A DNA stretch of 64,000 nt, taken from NCBI GenBank assembly GCA_000146465.1, contig CP001947.1. One strand, written 5' to 3'. Positions 24,981 through 63,951 of the stretch are shown here, piece after piece (the first letter of the stretch is position 1; each line of letters opens with the position of its first letter). The notes below the pieces were generated by a model that worked only from the letters and a program-made list of their open reading frames with translations, did no database searches and was not told where the DNA came from. The translations under genes and the position numbers were made by a program.

Positions 24981-26213
24981 TTAGTTGAGAAGTCCTTTTT
25001 CCAGGTTCTTTAAGATTTGGATTCGTTTCCAAACGATAAGCTTTTTTACATACCAAACGTTTCGGTTGAAGATCTTTTTGTGTTTATCGCAACGCCTTCT
25101 CCAATAGTTGTTTAGTGATTCTGGGGTCTTGCAGCAGCTTAGCAAAGACTTGAAGTCTTTTATATTTTTTTCTATAATGTAGTTTCCAGTCCATGTAATT
25201 TTTGATATTAGGGTTTTGAGATAGATCTGGAGTCTTTCTTCTTCCCCTCCAAAGATTTCCAGCTGTTCTTGGGTGGTTTCCTCCACAGAGGTGTCGTAGG
25301 GCTTGTGAAGGATCTTGTTGAGGTTTTTTATGGCTCTCAACACATCAAAATTCTTTTTGTAGTTCATGATATATATGTACAGAAAGGTTGATATCTCTAT
25401 CTCTGGAATGTGGATGGTCCAAGTGGTGTCGAGTGCATAAAAAAATGTCTTGAACTTCCTTTCAAGATCTTCGGTGATCTCCAGGAGAAAGATTCCACAA
25501 ATCCTTTGAAGATACTGGAAAAACATTCCATAATCTCTTCTAAGATCCTGTCTGAAGCAAGCCTTGTTATTTTCAATCTCTTCATCAGGAATTCCTGTTT
25601 CGTTGTAGAATTCCACAATGCGACAAGCATGGCGATTCTTTTGAATGCTAGTGCATTTTTCTCCAAGACGTTTAAGTATTCTATACACAGGAATTAGGCC
25701 TGTGTCTTCAAAGCGGGCCGTAAGGAATCGGGAGTATTTCATTCCTAAAGCCTCAAGCCTTTCCCTTTCTCTTTCTTCGCGTGGATACAGCTGCATCGAC
25801 TGATAATAGTCCAAGTAAAGATAAGTCTTTCCTTCGGCTTCCATCTCTATTCTCTTCGAGTAATAGCCCAGTGCTCTGAGAACCGGATATATCGGCAAGG
25901 GCTTTGAAAGAGCTCTTCCCGGCATTTCTTTAACTGTGTCCGCAAAGATATCGAAGTATCTGGTGGATTTAATACCTAGATAGTTTTTGATGTCATCAAA
26001 CAGTACATAGTAGATCAACAAGTTCACATAGTCCTCGCTATATTTCTTGATTAGGAACTTCCTGGGCTTTTCCTTGTTGATGGTTTTTCCAACAAAAGCT
26101 GGTAGAATTTCGCTTGAAACTTCCATTCTGTCTTTTATGATATGACCCTCCTCACAGATATAGTCGTTCTCTATCATCTCGAGGGGAGCACCACATATTT
26201 CACAGACAATCAT
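24981..26213 (-). CDS. TFIIB-like Zn-ribbon transcription factor (candidate RNA pol I factor Rrn7/TAF1B, or Brf-like)
   Basis: N-terminal C4 Zn ribbon (CEICGAPLEMIENDYICEEGHI) plus a helical body. The track start is TTG. First ATG (MIVCEIC...) is at 26213. Convergent with PUS7, with a 7-bp gap between stops. Confidence 0.5.
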   Translation of the reverse strand: MIVCEICGAPLEMIENDYICEEGHIIKDRMEVSSEILPAFVGKTINKEKPRKFLIKKYSEDYVNLLIYYVLFDDIKNYLGIKSTRYFDIFADTVKEMPGRALSKPLPIYPVLRALGYYSKRIEMEAEGKTYLYLDYYQSMQLYPREERERERLEALGMKYSRFLTARFEDTGLIPVYRILKRLGEKCTSIQKNRHACRIVEFYNETGIPDEEIENNKACFRQDLRRDYGMFFQYLQRICGIFLLEITEDLERKFKTFFYALDTTWTIHIPEIEISTFLYIYIMNYKKNFDVLRAIKNLNKILHKPYDTSVEETTQEQLEIFGGEEERLQIYLKTLISKITWTGNYIIEKNIKDFKSLLSCCKTPESLNNYWRRRCDKHKKIFNRNVWYVKKLIVWKRIQILKNLEKGLLN

Positions 26214-26257
26214 TCTGGGATTTCCAAGGGCATTTTTATCTATGTCTTCCTTCGCCC

Positions 26258-27652
26258 ATGGAAAAGAACACAAAGATCAAGGGCGGGTCCTTCAAAACCA
26301 TGGGATTGGATTACAGACTTCTCCGAAACATTCTTTACGAAAACCCAACGCCAATTCAAAGAAAGACAATTCCGTTGGTTCTGGAGAGAAGGAGTCTAAT
26401 GGGGGTTGGAAGAACAGGGAGTGGAAAGACACTATGCTATCTCATCCCTGCTGTGCAACGAGCCATCGAGGGAGAAAGAACACTTGTGATTGCCCCTACC
26501 AAGGAGCTTGTCACCCAGGTCAGAAGGGTACTGAAGAGACTGGCAAGAGGGATAGAGGATGTATGGAAGCTCATTGAAATCAACACTCCAGGAAATATTC
26601 AAAGCACAAGTGTTGAGATGCTGGTGGTTGATGAAATAGATAGAATTCTGGAAGAGCCAAGCCTGAAGTTGGTATTTGATAGGATAAGCGAAGAGGTGGC
26701 GTGCCAGAAGGTATTCTTTAGTGCAACACTCCCAGATCATCCATTGAACATAAAGGTAGTTGAAATAGAGGCCAAGATAAACGAGACGGTTAAGCATTTT
26801 TTCTTCTATGTTCCAAGTGAGAGCAAGGAGGCAGCTCTGCTTCGAGTATTGGATAAGACAAGAAAGACAATTGTGTTTGTTGCAACTAAGTATGCTGTGG
26901 AATTGCTTCTAGAGATCCTTAACAAAAACAATTTCGAGTCACGTGGAATTTATTCTTCAATGGACGATGAGGCAAGAAGAACCAATTTCAAAGACTTCAA
27001 CTCTTCCAAGTTCAACATTCTTGTTGTGACGGATGTTGCAGCACGTGGACTAGACATCCCATATCTTGACACTGTTGTAAACTATGATCTGTGTGACGAA
27101 AGGACATTTCTGCACAGGGTTGGGCGTGTTCGGGGAATGGGAGTGCAATACAGCTTTGTGACATACACAGATGTCTTTCACTTCTTCAACATACAGGAAA
27201 CATATCTTCCCAATGTTGAGATCGGAACAATTCCTCAGGAGTATCTAGATGTTTATGACTTCGGGGAATTTGAGCATCTAAAGTCTGTTGCAAACAAAGG
27301 ACATCAGAAATGCCTTGAATTTAGAAGAAAAGTCAGTGTTCCGGCCGAGTACAAAGACAAGATAAAGGGATTCAAAACTCATTCTATGTTTGAGCATAAG
27401 GAAACACTTCTTGACCAGCTTAAAGAGATGGAGAGCCGCAAGACATTACCTCGAAAGGAAGATGAAAAAGTAGAAAACAAAGAGTACAGAGACCAGACAT
27501 TTATACCCTATGCCCGTAAGGACTCTAGAATTCATTCATCTGCGTTTGGAGTGGCGAAAGATGATTACGTCAGAGAAAGAAAGGAAAAATTTTCTTTTTC
27601 CATGATGAGGAGGAGAACAGCAAAGAAAACGGCGGAAACAAGTAAAAAATAA
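26258..27652 (+). CDS. DEAD-box ATP-dependent RNA helicase (sex-locus-type RNA helicase)
   Basis: Q motif, motif I GRTGSGKT, Ia APTKELV, II DEID (VVDEIDRIL), III SAT, VI HRVGRVRG. 464 aa. ATG confirmed. Confidence 0.85.
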   Translation: MEKNTKIKGGSFKTMGLDYRLLRNILYENPTPIQRKTIPLVLERRSLMGVGRTGSGKTLCYLIPAVQRAIEGERTLVIAPTKELVTQVRRVLKRLARGIEDVWKLIEINTPGNIQSTSVEMLVVDEIDRILEEPSLKLVFDRISEEVACQKVFFSATLPDHPLNIKVVEIEAKINETVKHFFFYVPSESKEAALLRVLDKTRKTIVFVATKYAVELLLEILNKNNFESRGIYSSMDDEARRTNFKDFNSSKFNILVVTDVAARGLDIPYLDTVVNYDLCDERTFLHRVGRVRGMGVQYSFVTYTDVFHFFNIQETYLPNVEIGTIPQEYLDVYDFGEFEHLKSVANKGHQKCLEFRRKVSVPAEYKDKIKGFKTHSMFEHKETLLDQLKEMESRKTLPRKEDEKVENKEYRDQTFIPYARKDSRIHSSAFGVAKDDYVRERKEKFSFSMMRRRTAKKTAETSKK

Positions 27653-27749
27653 ACGAATTTTATTGGCAAGTAAGTTGTTGTGTCTTCTTAGTTATAAAGG
27701 TTTTCAAGAAATCAGGGTTTTGGAATTGTGTATCTCCTTTAAAGTAGGA

Positions 27750-27822
27750 GGCCTCATAGCTCAATGGTTAGAGTGTCGGCCTACGGAGCCGAAGGTTGAG
27801 GGTTCGAGTCCCTCTGGGGTCG
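27750..27822 (+). tRNA. tRNA-Arg (anticodon ACG)
   Basis: Cloverleaf: acceptor GGCCTCA/TGGGGTC, D-arm GCTC-AATGGTTA-GAGT, anticodon stem TCGGC/GCCGA with loop CTACGGA, T-arm GAGGG-TTCGAGT-CCCTC, discriminator G. No encoded CCA. Confidence 0.85.
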
Positions 27823-28404
27823 GCTGTCTTTTGTGCTTCTTTTTTTCTTCCTAGACTTTTTCATCCACATCTCTAGTGCATTGCTTCTGTATCTGCCCTG
27901 CACATCTTCATCCAACGAGTTCCACATCTTAATGAACATACGAACGTTTTCTTCTGGAGACACATTTATGTCGCCACAGATGTCGAAGAGTTCGTTTACA
28001 AAGAAAAGATATCCTGAACACTCCCATCGCTGTATATCCCGTATTTTAACATATTTTCTTAGCTTCTTTATCGTGTTTGTATCATTGACTAAATTGCCGT
28101 CGTCACAGCCATCCAACTCATTGGCTTCCTCAAGATCTTTATTGCATTTTTCCACATACATATTCCTCTCCTCGTCCGGCATTTCCTTCCATACAGCCAT
28201 CATATTCAAGGCAGTATCGACACAACTTGTGTATTTGTAATTATTACTTTGGAAAAAGTCCCTGGCAAAGACCGTGAATGGAGATCTCTGCTTGGTAGGC
28301 ATTGAATACAAGGATTCAAAAAATTTCATCTCGGGGGTATGTATCTTCGAAAAATACACCAAAGGAATTAGATAGTACAGTAGAGGCCAATAAATAGAGT
28401 CCAT
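27781..28404 (-). CDS. HMG-box protein (divergent single HMG box with extended C-terminal region)
   Basis: HMG box PTKQRSPFTVFARDFF...WKEMPDEERNMYVEK. The hydrophobic first 25 aa suggest the real start may be M26 (about 28329). The last 14 codons (...RDSNPQPSAP) are encoded antisense to the tRNA-Arg. Confidence 0.6.
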   Translation of the reverse strand: MDSIYWPLLYYLIPLVYFSKIHTPEMKFFESLYSMPTKQRSPFTVFARDFFQSNNYKYTSCVDTALNMMAVWKEMPDEERNMYVEKCNKDLEEANELDGCDDGNLVNDTNTIKKLRKYVKIRDIQRWECSGYLFFVNELFDICGDINVSPEENVRMFIKMWNSLDEDVQGRYRSNALEMWMKKSRKKKRSTKDSRPQRDSNPQPSAP

Positions 28405-28411
28405 TTAATCC

Positions 28412-28957
28412 CTATTTTCCCACCAGGCCCGAATTCACATTCTTTTCTTCAGCAATCTTGTTATAGACGGCCTTCTCGTCGTCGCTGAGTTCTTTCCATC
28501 TCTTTGCAACAGCAGACGTAGTCTCCATCATCGTGAAGCTGGGATTCTCTTCAGAAACAGCTTTTCGGACTGCCTTAAAGAACTCGTTGTACCCAGTTAC
28601 TTTCTTGGCTCCTTTTTTCTTTCTTCCAGCTGCTGCTTCATCAGCTGCAACCTTCTCAAGATAATCCTGGTACTCATCGCTCTTCTTGTATTCCTCAACC
28701 TTTGCCAGATATAGCTCTCTCTCCTTGTTTGAAATCTTGTTGTATTCCTCTCTTTCCTCATCAGAGAGCTTCTTCCACATCTCAGAAATAGATCTTCCTT
28801 GGTCTGCTACGGGTAGCTTGCTCAGTTCCTCATTCTTCTTCCTTTGCTCCTGCCCAAAAATAAAGTACCCCGACATAGGCTTCTTCGGTGCATTGGGGTC
28901 CTTGCGTTTTTTTACTGCCGCTTTACTCCTTGGCTTTTTGCTCTTCTCAGTTACCAT
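28412..28957 (-). CDS. HMG-box protein with two HMGB-type boxes
   Basis: Box 1 PKKPMSGYFIFGQEQRKK...ISEMWKKLSDEEREEY. Box 2 KKVTGYNEFFKAVRK...VAKRWKELSDDEKAVY. ATG confirmed. Only 7 bp from the downstream HMG gene. Confidence 0.8.
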   Translation of the reverse strand: MVTEKSKKPRSKAAVKKRKDPNAPKKPMSGYFIFGQEQRKKNEELSKLPVADQGRSISEMWKKLSDEEREEYNKISNKERELYLAKVEEYKKSDEYQDYLEKVAADEAAAGRKKKGAKKVTGYNEFFKAVRKAVSEENPSFTMMETTSAVAKRWKELSDDEKAVYNKIAEEKNVNSGLVGK

Positions 28958-29083
28958 AATGATGGGGGTAGAAGAAATAGCTTATAAAATTTTAATAAGA
29001 ACCAGCCCAGTCGATATTTTACAGTTAAATCGCCCTTCTAACCTCTTATCATATGCAGTAGATACCAATTGATAGAGTGTCTT

Positions 29084-29860
29084 TTACAAAATATCATTCT
29101 CGGGCCTGAGTCTCTCCTTAACAATCTCAAGTAGCTTCTTCACCTCGGAAAGCATAGCATGTGTTGAAATGTATTCCTCTATGACTCTGTGTGCCTCATT
29201 CAAGTCTCCCTGAAGTGCATTACATACCTCCTTCTCATCTCCACTGACATCAAGATCTAGAGGCGTCCCCTCGATGGAATAGCAGAGAAATCCACAGAAG
29301 GTGTATATGTTTTCCTTGAACCCCAAGAATATTTTAGCTGCCTCTCCATACCTTCCAAGTTCTATATACACCTCTGCAATGTCTCTCATTGCCTTTTTCT
29401 TATGATGCTTCCAGCTGCTTCCACAGTAGCACTCAGCAACCTTCTGCAGGCATTCCAGGCATCCCTCGAGATTTCCTTCCTTTCTTAGTATCTCAGATGC
29501 TCTTTGGAAACTCACTGCTGCCAAGCTCTCTCGTCCACATTGCTTGGAATACATCCCAGACTTCTTATATGCCGAAATGGCTTTTTCAGGATATTCATCC
29601 TCACATGTCTGTGCTATCTTCTCATACACCTGCGAAGCTTGATATCTTCCATACTCTCCGTCCTCCATCTCATAGGTCTTTGCCGCCTCCTCGTAGTATC
29701 GTATCTTTTCAGATGTCTCCTCTTCCATATTTCCAATCTCCATGAAAATCTCCGCAGAGCTTTCATAGTCTGGCGATGAAAACAGATTGAATGGAAATGC
29801 TCCCTTTGTCCTCAATTTCTCTGCTTCCTTTAGTTTTCTGGTTTTGGATTCAGCATCCAT
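29084..29860 (-). CDS. SEC17: alpha-soluble NSF attachment protein (alpha-SNAP/Sec17)
   Basis: TPR-like helical repeats (AAKTYE..., AISAYKKSG..., AAKIFLGFKE). N-terminus LSGFEKAEVLKK...F.LF. The track start is TTG. First ATG (MDAESKT...) is at 29860. Confidence 0.7.
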   Translation of the reverse strand: MDAESKTRKLKEAEKLRTKGAFPFNLFSSPDYESSAEIFMEIGNMEEETSEKIRYYEEAAKTYEMEDGEYGRYQASQVYEKIAQTCEDEYPEKAISAYKKSGMYSKQCGRESLAAVSFQRASEILRKEGNLEGCLECLQKVAECYCGSSWKHHKKKAMRDIAEVYIELGRYGEAAKIFLGFKENIYTFCGFLCYSIEGTPLDLDVSGDEKEVCNALQGDLNEAHRVIEEYISTHAMLSEVKKLLEIVKERLRPENDIL

Positions 29861-29966
29861 GGGCCCCTTCCCGTGTGTTTTTTTAAGCACCTCCGCTTTT
29901 TCAAATCCAGAGAGCAACCTGCACAAAACTTTATTTAATAAACATCAATAAATCTATCCTGAAGAC

Positions 29967-30890
29967 TTAATGGGAGCAGAAGGGCTTTCTGCTGAGATTG
30001 TATATTAGTATCCCCACAATACTTATGGCTAATCCTGCATAGTTCAAACTGCTTAGGGTGATATCTTTTGTTACTATTGCATAAAAAATAATTATCAGCT
30101 CCTTAACAATCCCTGCAACACTTAGAAACACAACACCGGTTTCCGAAACAAGCATGAACTCTGCACATAGTAGCGTAAATGATAGGACCCCGCAAAGAGA
30201 AATATACCCAAAATTTCGTAGGGCAGCATCAAACGTGTTGAAAAACCTAGATGTTGCTATCTCCATGAGACCTTCAACATGCAAAGAAATTAAGAGGAGG
30301 AGGAACGATATGGGAAGGCAAAGGTCCCTTATGGTTACAAGAATTCCTTCCTTCCGGACTTCCTGATTTCTAATAAGGTATTGGACAAACGCCCATCGGA
30401 ACCCTGCCATCAAAGAAGCAAACGAGATGGTTCCGAATCCAATAATATCAAAGCTTGTGTTTTTTATTGACGTGAGAAACACTCCCACGCCAATGGTGAA
30501 TATCGTCAGAAAAAACGTTATCGATGGTTTCTCGATCCCAAGTGCAAATCCAAATAACAGAATAAACACCGGAGAAGAAGACTTCACCATTGTGTAGAAT
30601 GCAAGGGTTGCCGACCTTAGAGATATGGATGAAAGGCCTATGTCTGTGGCTCCTGCAAGGGCACATGGAAACGAAGGCCCAAAGTAATTAGGCTTTGGAG
30701 CTTTTTCCTTCTGAAACCTCAGGGCTGTGGATGCTCCGAAAAAATGGATCAGGTTCTGCATGGACGCCTTGAACAAGGGAAAGGAGAAATTGTATGTCTT
30801 TTTGGAAAGCAGAAACGATGTTAGATATCCCAGGCTTAATGACAGAACATAATACATGAGCACTAATCCCAGTACTCTGATTCTGTTCAT
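29967..30890 (-). CDS. TPT: triose-phosphate/sugar-phosphate transporter family protein (TPT, DMT superfamily)
   Basis: About 8-10 TM helices. TPT signatures ATLAFYTMVKSSSPVFILLFGFALGIEKPS and NYAGLAISIVGILIYN. ATG confirmed. Confidence 0.8.
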   Translation of the reverse strand: MNRIRVLGLVLMYYVLSLSLGYLTSFLLSKKTYNFSFPLFKASMQNLIHFFGASTALRFQKEKAPKPNYFGPSFPCALAGATDIGLSSISLRSATLAFYTMVKSSSPVFILLFGFALGIEKPSITFFLTIFTIGVGVFLTSIKNTSFDIIGFGTISFASLMAGFRWAFVQYLIRNQEVRKEGILVTIRDLCLPISFLLLLISLHVEGLMEIATSRFFNTFDAALRNFGYISLCGVLSFTLLCAEFMLVSETGVVFLSVAGIVKELIIIFYAIVTKDITLSSLNYAGLAISIVGILIYNLSRKPFCSH

Positions 30891-31016: not shown

Positions 31017-31210
31017 CTACCTCTCAAGCCAATCGGCTTTGATCAAGTGTAGTATCTGTTCTTGCCAGTGTAAGAACTGGCATTATCCGTAAGGATAAAT
31101 TCATCGAATTTTTGGATGGCAGGGTGATGTAGAGGAGCTTGAGCGCTTGCGTTTCGGCCAATCTACTTGAGGTCTGCAGGCTTCTGGGCTGTAGAGCCTA
31201 GGAAAAGCCG
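31017..31210 (+). ncRNA. U2: U2 spliceosomal snRNA
   Basis: GGCUUUGAUCAAGUGUAGUAUCUGUUCUUGCCAGUGUAAGAACUGGCA is near-identical to the universal U2 5' region (branch-point interaction GUAGUA, stem IIa). Stem-loop I AAGCC-AAUC-GGCUU. Sm site AAUUUUUGG at about 31107. 3' stem-loops then a T7 run at 31211-17. Confidence 0.85.
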
Positions 31211-31268
31211 TTTTTTTGTAATGTTTTCTGTTCTATTTCTTTTATCCAAGGATCCCCAACTCAAAGAA

Positions 31269-32072
31269 ATGAAGTATGCGGAGATCATCATAGGGCCTCC
31301 TGGAAGCGGGAAGTCTACCTATGTCATGAATAAAAAGACATGGCTCTCCCATAGAAGTCCATACACAATAAATCTTGATCCGGGGAATTCCAACTCCAAG
31401 GAGTTTGACTATTCGATATGCTCCATCTCGTCGTCTTCGGTATATCAAGAAAAACATGATGTTGGGCCTAACATGTCCACAAAATGCATTTTAGAGGAAT
31501 TTGTTACTCGTATCGATGAGTTCTTCCGGGAGAACATTGAAGATACAGACCACTACGTCCTAATAGATTTTCCAGGACAGGTGGAATTTTTTATATCCAG
31601 CGATATTCCCAACAGAATCATCAGATATCTTAAAAGAAATGGATATTCGGTTGTGGTTTTGAATCTTATCGACCTGGTATTCTTCTCGAACAGTCACTCG
31701 CTGGTTTCATCGTATCTAATCTCGACATTGTGCCTCTGTCTTCTTGAGTCGGCCCAGATCAACATCATCAGCAAATGCGACAATTGGAAAAGTCTTGAGA
31801 TGGAGTATCCGTTGGAAGAGATTGCATCGTTGGAATGTCTAGAGGAGATTCCGAGGAAGAAAAAGTTGTATAGTGAGATGATCTCTTTTGTCCTCAACCA
31901 AGGACTGCTACTGTATGAAATCCTGGACTATGACAATCCAGACTCTGTTCTAAATCTTCAGGTTGGCATAGACAGAGCAAGCGGGTTGTTTTTTGAAGAC
32001 AACTACTTTGACACCGAGAAAATAACAAGGATTCCTTCCAGAGATGAGGTTTTCTCAAAATACAAATCCTAA
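31269..32072 (+). CDS. GPN-loop GTPase (XAB1/Npa3 family)
   Basis: P-loop IIIGPPGSGKSTY. GPN-like LDPGN. The track start is upstream run-through. In-frame ATG (MKYAEIIIGPPG) is at 31269. Confidence 0.65.
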   Translation: MKYAEIIIGPPGSGKSTYVMNKKTWLSHRSPYTINLDPGNSNSKEFDYSICSISSSSVYQEKHDVGPNMSTKCILEEFVTRIDEFFRENIEDTDHYVLIDFPGQVEFFISSDIPNRIIRYLKRNGYSVVVLNLIDLVFFSNSHSLVSSYLISTLCLCLLESAQINIISKCDNWKSLEMEYPLEEIASLECLEEIPRKKKLYSEMISFVLNQGLLLYEILDYDNPDSVLNLQVGIDRASGLFFEDNYFDTEKITRIPSRDEVFSKYKS

Positions 32073-63879: not shown

Positions 63880-63951
63880 GGTTGCGTGGTGTAATGGTTA
63901 TCACTTCAGACTCTGAATCTGACAATCTGAGTTCGAATCTCGGCGCGACCA
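63880..63951 (+). tRNA. tRNA-Gln (anticodon CUG)
   Basis: GGTTGCGTGGTGTAATGGTTATCACTTCAGACTCTGAATCTGACAATCTGAGTTCGAATCTCGGCGCGACC + A. Acceptor GGTTGCG/CGCGACC, anticodon loop CTCTGAA, T-loop TTCGAAT. Close to canonical eukaryotic tRNA-Gln. Confidence 0.85.

Follow-up and report, generated by a model that had tools for sequence, protein, structure and literature searches.

The 'sex-related locus' on chromosome VI of Encephalitozoon intestinalis: probably a collinear set of housekeeping genes with a superficial resemblance to the zygomycete sex locus

Does the clustering of a triose-phosphate transporter (TPT) family gene, high mobility group (HMG) genes and an RNA helicase gene in the microsporidian Encephalitozoon intestinalis reflect a sex locus? 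The cluster lies at positions 26258-30890 of a 64,000-nt stretch of contig CP001947.1 (assembly GCA_000146465.1), referred to here as the window, to which all coordinates apply unless another sequence is named. In the tptA-sexM/sexP-rnhA locus of the Mucoromycotina (Phycomyces, Mucor, Rhizopus), an HMG-box gene likewise sits between genes annotated as TPT-family and RNA helicase. The microsporidian locus was once used to argue for the descent of microsporidia from sexual zygomycete-like fungi and for an ancient HMG-based system of sex determination. Our re-examination sides with the later critique, which sees in the flanking genes housekeeping paralogues of the sex-locus genes rather than their orthologues. 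It is highly probable that the block consists of collinear housekeeping genes, and that its resemblance to the zygomycete sex locus is a superficial one of family names.

The interval is the published chromosome VI 'sex-related locus' of E. intestinalis ATCC 50506, and our analysis thus rediscovers a locus that is already known and already contested. Its proteins match exactly those of the reference annotation: ADM11726 ('DEAD box ATP-dependent RNA helicase'), ADM11728 ('high mobility group protein'), Eint_061210, Eint_061230 ('uncharacterized protein') and Eint_061240. The features and positions given in the initial annotation of the window were all recovered by open reading frame (ORF), Pfam, Rfam and ARAGORN evidence, including the U2 small nuclear RNA (snRNA) gene just outside the TPT gene (Table 1). 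The window is densely packed with ORFs and has a G+C content of ~40%. The annotated weak HMG and SNAP-like proteins start at internal ATGs (28329 and 29860, respectively) and are shorter than the mechanical ORFs.

Table 1 Features of the E. intestinalis locus in window coordinates.
Feature	Position	Strand	Size and evidence
DEAD-type RNA helicase	26258-27652	+	464 aa; Pfam DEAD 93.9 bits, Helicase_C 82.9 bits
tRNA-Arg(ACG)	27750-27822	+	ARAGORN; Rfam tRNA 67.3 bits
Weak HMG, Eint_061210	27781-28329 (mechanical ORF to 28404)	-	182 aa (mechanical ORF 207 aa); HMG_box 17.1 bits (cut-off 25.4)
Two-box HMG protein, ADM11728	28412-28957	-	181 aa; Pfam HMG_box 75.2 bits, two stretches
SNAP-family gene, Eint_061230	29084-29860 (mechanical ORF to 29926)	-	258 aa; PF14938 45.9 bits (cut-off 25)
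TPT-family transporter, Eint_061240	29967-30890	-	307 aa; PF03151 64.6 bits
U2 snRNA, between TPT gene and GPN-loop GTPase gene	31017-31209	+	Rfam RF00004 83.5 bits (cut-off 46), full model length

Lee et al. (2010, PLoS One 5:e10539; PMC2866331), citing their own 2008 paper, give the gene order of the locus as TPT, hypothetical protein (HP), HMG, weak HMG, followed by the RNA helicase. Our block has the same genes in the same order, from the same species and chromosome region, and the synteny noted in the initial annotation is thus the microsporidian sex-related locus of the literature. The published levels of identity between species (HMG ~90%, HP ~80%, weak HMG ~45-51%, with ~46% between E. 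intestinalis and E. hellem) agree with ours, in which the weak HMG is again the most diverged at 52-56% to E. hellem and E. romaleae. Gene order, positional orthology and the pairing of a conserved two-box HMG gene with a diverged weak HMG gene all place the block in the Encephalitozoon-type locus. The text of the paper includes neither the tRNA-Arg nor the U2 snRNA gene and has no name for the HP; nothing else of substance differs. New at the level of annotation are the assignment of the HP to the SNAP family, the reading of the weak HMG as a probable two-box copy, and the recognition of tRNA-Arg and U2 as stable members of the block.

Lee et al. themselves found that the microsporidian TPT and helicase seem paralogous to the zygomycete sex-locus genes (PMC2866331). 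Koestler and Ebersberger (2011, PMC3056290) showed that the helicases and TPTs of microsporidia ('S2') and of zygomycetes ('S1') belong to separate ortholog groups, each with members in animals, fungi and plants. S1 and S2 split in their trees with 100% bootstrap support, a separation that predates the divergence of plants, animals and fungi. The helicase orthologue of E. cuniculi carries 197 S2 against 24 S1 characteristic sites, and the S2 orthologues of Phycomyces lie on scaffolds other than that of the sex locus. The same authors judged convergent assembly plausible (PMC3056290). Genome papers since then have referred to the locus as no more than a candidate.

Homologous loci were compared in E. 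hellem (L001), E. romaleae (L002), Ordospora colligata (L003, L004) and two assemblies of public reads (L005, L006). In the other Encephalitozoon and Ordospora genomes, HMG is flanked by the orthologues of this helicase and this TPT. The helicase shares 87-89% amino acid identity with those of E. hellem and E. romaleae. Its best relatives among solved structures, by a wide margin, are human DDX54 (173 bits) and chains of Dbp10 (161, 160 and 145 bits), followed by the next helicase at 119 bits. Dbp10 and DDX54 are nucleolar factors of large-subunit (pre-60S) ribosome assembly. Like them, the E. intestinalis protein contains DEAD and Helicase_C domains; unlike them, it is short, at roughly half the 732-995 amino acids of the matched chains, and its motif II (26630-26641) reads DEID. 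The motif is DEVD in L005 and L006, and none of the six orthologues has DEAD. The motifs G(V/I)GRTGSGKT (GVGRTGSGKT in the window) and PTKEL are variants of the S2 motifs GMARTGSGKT and RELALQT and are unlike the S1 motifs IQGPPGTGKT and NHALDQF of the zygomycete sex-locus helicase. Motifs, best relatives and published sites all speak against orthology to the sex-locus helicase RnhA, the comparison being made through the published motifs. The helicase is, to judge by its relatives, of the DDX54/Dbp10 type and may act in the biogenesis of the large ribosomal subunit.

The transporter, a member of the triose-phosphate/nucleotide-sugar transporter family, leads to a similar picture. It is 91-92% identical to its counterparts in E. 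hellem and E. romaleae, and several sources name its homologues 'solute carrier family 35 member C2' (SLC35C2). In two assemblies of Phycomyces blakesleeanus, the best TPT homologue (P0069) is surrounded by Zip, ERGIC, Iki1 and Ala_racemase_N genes, and neither an HMG nor a helicase gene lies within 10 kb. This context and the published trees argue against orthology to the sex-locus TptA, a comparison made through the best Phycomyces homologue. The protein would be a transporter of the Golgi or endoplasmic reticulum.

The main HMG protein, 90-92% identical to those of E. hellem and E. romaleae, also differs from its zygomycete counterparts. A profile of its six orthologues matched HMGB1, HMGB2, HMGB3, NHP6A and SSRP1 best among solved structures, and also NHP1 and TFAM. 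None of the 37 structure matches at E<1e-5 was a SOX, LEF or MAT-type chain, save an SRY/HMGB1 chimera that was matched on its HMGB1 part. The protein has tandem A and B boxes like HMGB1, while it differs from HMGB1 and NHP6A in having no evident acidic tail; orthology cannot be derived from HMG boxes. We infer from these matches that it is an architectural chromatin protein closest to HMGB1/NHP6A. In contrast, the zygomycete HMG genes are single-box idiomorphs in which SexP and SexM show 14-20% similarity (PMC2866331), against a two-box protein that is 90% identical between species and invariant within species.

Rates of change point in the same direction. In a comparison of E. hellem with E. 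romaleae across 13 genes of the region, the lowest non-synonymous divergence (dN) was that of HMG (0.023), TPT (0.029) and the helicase (0.043). Synonymous divergence (dS) is saturated (0.65 to above 2, with some values undefined), and we therefore rank genes by dN and regard dN/dS, which is well below 1 throughout, as indicative. The three named genes are thus under strong constraint; the neighbouring genes of the window are 59-81% identical to those of E. hellem and E. romaleae. As a rule, HMG genes of mating type evolve at some of the highest rates, unlike the main HMG gene here, which is one of the slowest in its block.

Idiomorph-like divergence between isolates, for which the initial annotation had suggested a comparison, was not seen in recorded proteins, in an independent contig or in published isolates, a small sampling in all. 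The same E. intestinalis proteins are recorded under four accessions on five contigs. In an independent read assembly, a contig of 1709 bases agrees with window positions 27500-29208 at 100% identity; it was the only independent contig that our look-up of the HMG protein returned, and a look-up of the 182-aa weak HMG gave no record. The available data thus contain no variation at the locus. Lee et al. sequenced the locus in 11 isolates of E. cuniculi, three of E. intestinalis and one of E. hellem and found no idiomorphs; the E. intestinalis isolates were >99% identical and those of E. cuniculi nearly identical (PMC2866331). According to these authors, there is no direct evidence that the HMG gene controls mating type.

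The cluster is embedded in a much longer conserved stretch. Thirteen consecutive protein genes (window 21.4-35.4 kb), from the gene of a 679-aa TPR protein to a DnaJ-like gene, are arranged alike, in order as well as in orientation, in E. hellem, E. romaleae, O. colligata (L003) and the read assembly L006, and an 11-kb contig of L005 holds 11 of the 13 in the same order. The tRNA-Arg(ACG) and U2 genes occupy the same two positions in all five of these relatives. The initial annotation had described the tRNA and the SNAP-like gene as extra passengers of the helicase-HMG-TPT triad. Both are present, as it stated, yet they are not additions peculiar to this window. Since the positions of tRNA-Arg and U2 and the order of the 13 genes are kept across relatives, the passengers are constant members of a long collinear stretch and not insertions into a three-gene unit.

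Beyond this group the cluster is only partly kept. The locus of Vairimorpha necatrix retains DnaJ, Dph, RINGv, GPN, U2, TPT and tRNA-Arg, together with a two-box HMG gene and an ORF of 203 aa that is unrelated; nearby there is no helicase, SNAP-like or weak HMG gene, in agreement with the description of Nosema ceranae by Lee et al. (PMC2866331). In V. necatrix (L012, 9045-12811) tRNA-Arg(ACG) lies between TPT and the 203-aa ORF, followed by the two-box HMG gene and a histone-fold gene. Linkage of TPT and HMG was also reported in Enterocytozoon and Antonospora, and neither N. ceranae nor A. locustae has a linked helicase (PMC2866331). Neither Nematocida displodere nor Gurleya vavrai showed an HMG, helicase or SNAP-like gene within 8 kb of its TPT orthologue.

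Taken as a whole, these observations do not bear out the view of the initial annotation that the triad is the one that defines sexM/sexP: the helicase appears to be a DDX54/Dbp10-type S2 protein, the TPT homologue in Phycomyces has a different context, the HMG protein has two boxes and resembles HMGB, and no idiomorphs are known. A SNAP-like gene, the weak HMG and a tRNA gene moreover lie inside the Encephalitozoon block, in contrast to the Mucoromycotina locus. We propose that the genes of the region (helicase, HMG, weak HMG, SNAP-like, transporter, tRNA-Arg and U2) would act independently as a housekeeping set, and that they would lie together through chromosome collinearity across Encephalitozoon and Ordospora rather than as a functional unit. 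The resemblance to tptA-sexM/P-rnhA would most likely have arisen by chance or by convergent assembly during genome compaction. The locus would then have no sex-determining role. As the flanking genes are paralogous and the HMG protein is chromatin-like, the cluster would provide neither evidence for a mating type in Encephalitozoon nor phylogenetic information.

Several points weigh against this interpretation. The linkage of TPT and HMG extends from Encephalitozoon to Vairimorpha. The dN of the weak HMG (0.221) exceeds that of every other gene in the block, a feature reminiscent of mating-type genes. The phylogeny of HMG boxes is uninformative (PMC2866331), so an assignment to the HMGB type by best match is not proof. 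Finally, when genes were placed at random, the share of trials with both a helicase and a TPT no more than two genes away from the HMG pair was ~4e-4, and the share with the two on opposite sides of it ~2e-4; the simulation used the family counts of E. cuniculi (48 helicases, three TPTs and one HMG pair; PMC3056290) with ~2000 genes assumed, and the comparison is post hoc, at the level of families, and with a locus chosen for looking similar. Such an adjacency is rare and not trivially expected, which makes pure chance uncomfortable as an explanation.

The rarity of chance co-location would be accommodated if an ancient TPT-HMG-helicase cluster had been duplicated early in eukaryotes, one copy giving rise to the zygomycete sex locus and the other to the microsporidian cluster. 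On this view the resemblance would be a matter of history, independent of what the genes do at present. Such a duplicated cluster is formally possible (PMC3056290), and Lee et al., who found the HMG-box phylogeny of no help, had proposed positional orthology with replacement by paralogues (PMC2866331). It would, however, require many independent losses in all other lineages (PMC3056290), and what our helicase has in common with the S1 helicase is limited to variants of general motifs. Because N. displodere and G. vavrai have no such cluster around the TPT orthologue and the helicase is unlinked in Vairimorpha, as in N. ceranae and A. locustae (PMC2866331), the full cluster does not look ancestral even within microsporidia. 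We regard an ancient common origin as improbable.

Less probable still is a homothallic determinant of sex or cell identity, in which the pair of HMG genes, or the two boxes of the HMG protein, would fill the roles of SexP and SexM within a single genome; idiomorphs would therefore not be expected. The idea was raised by Lee et al. (PMC2866331) and fits the presence of two adjacent HMG genes, one of them fast-evolving, and of only two HMG-type proteins in E. cuniculi (PMC3056290). On the other side, the weak HMG is not seen outside the Encephalitozoon/Ordospora group, either in the V. necatrix locus or by Lee et al. (2010), and the mechanism would thus not be a general one. The main HMG protein is closest to the HMGB type and among the most constrained locally; were it the sole canonical HMG-box protein, the general chromatin role would have to fall to it. 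In addition, a sexual cycle is not documented for these species. A narrower version, in which HMG and weak HMG form a self-compatible determinant in Encephalitozoon and Ordospora with the weak HMG as the fast-evolving specificity partner, would make the cluster a real, independently assembled analogue of the zygomycete sex locus, and strikes us as similarly far-fetched.

The housekeeping interpretation that we favour also includes a role for the HP. On sequence grounds, the published HP of the locus is established as a member of the SNAP family. The Pfam match spans positions 5-178 of the 282 in the profile, the annotations of all orthologues include PF14938, and the protein is 81% identical to those of E. 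hellem and E. romaleae. A profile of the SNAP-like proteins weakly matched alpha-SNAP in the PDB (E 0.01-0.05), and a phmmer search of the PDB gave no match. In a fold search with a model of low confidence built from the single sequence (predicted local distance difference test, pLDDT, 59), alpha-SNAP chains came first (E 4.6e-4), interleaved with generic TPR proteins. Specific orthology to Sec17/alpha-SNAP is likely, and the protein may be a reduced alpha-SNAP/Sec17-like factor that acts in vesicle fusion.

The initial annotation counted two HMG-box genes in the block. Against the Pfam HMG_box profile, the main HMG gene matched clearly, while the window copy of the weak HMG alone stayed below the cut-off (Table 1); PF00505 is nevertheless matched by six of six orthologues of the weak HMG family (best E 4.6e-9). 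The E. cuniculi protein annotated with 'weak similarity to HMG' is a 49% identical homologue. Both HMG-like boxes have W, Y and F positions that are invariant across orthologues. The AlphaFold2 model, of low confidence (pLDDT 57), shows two three-helix units, and the top matches in a fold search with it were the two-box proteins Abf2 and TFAM, without significance (best E 1.0). Since an hhalign alignment of the weak-HMG profile to that of the neighbouring HMG extends across both boxes (94%, E 1.2e-7, 137 columns), the weak HMG is most simply viewed as a fast-evolving, diverged two-box tandem duplicate of the adjacent gene.

The weak-HMG ORF and the tRNA-Arg(ACG) gene overlap in antisense by 42 bases (27781-27822). 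Inside the tRNA gene lie the TAG stop of the weak HMG, placed in the anticodon loop, and the 13 codons before it. The resulting protein tail, RPQRDSNPQPSAP, is common to E. hellem and L005 and nearly so in O. colligata, and the corresponding overlaps are found at L001 11162-11203, L005 7263-7304 and L003 9138-9180. The tail is presumably kept because the tRNA is kept. We also considered whether the ORF could be a non-coding artefact beside the tRNA gene and rejected this, as the ORF is kept in six genomes, has the invariant W, Y and F positions in both boxes and shows a dN far below its dS.

The collinear loci in public read assemblies come from SRR21633403 (L005) and from SRR21023581 and SRR21023579 (L006/L007). 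The HMG protein is 87% identical to that of the window in one of these relatives, which looks Encephalitozoon-like, and ~60% identical in the other, which looks Ordospora-like.

On the TPT side of the block, U2 lies between the TPT gene and a GPN-loop GTPase gene (PF03029) in every relative examined, including V. necatrix. The mechanical ORF of the GTPase (31167-32072) begins at a TTG within the U2 snRNA gene; an ATG at 31269 is the more likely start and would give 267 amino acids, against 268 in E. hellem.

On the helicase side, the ORF at 24981-26273 on the minus strand has no Pfam match. It is 59-60% identical to its counterparts in E. hellem and E. romaleae and 39-44% identical to those of remoter relatives, a rate of change comparable to that of the weak HMG. 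Read from a TTG start, it overlaps the start of the helicase gene by 16 bases. Because its relatives are annotated at 405-418 amino acids, the gene probably begins at an internal ATG instead. Close to its end, at 63880-63951, the window carries a second tRNA gene, tRNA-Gln(CTG).

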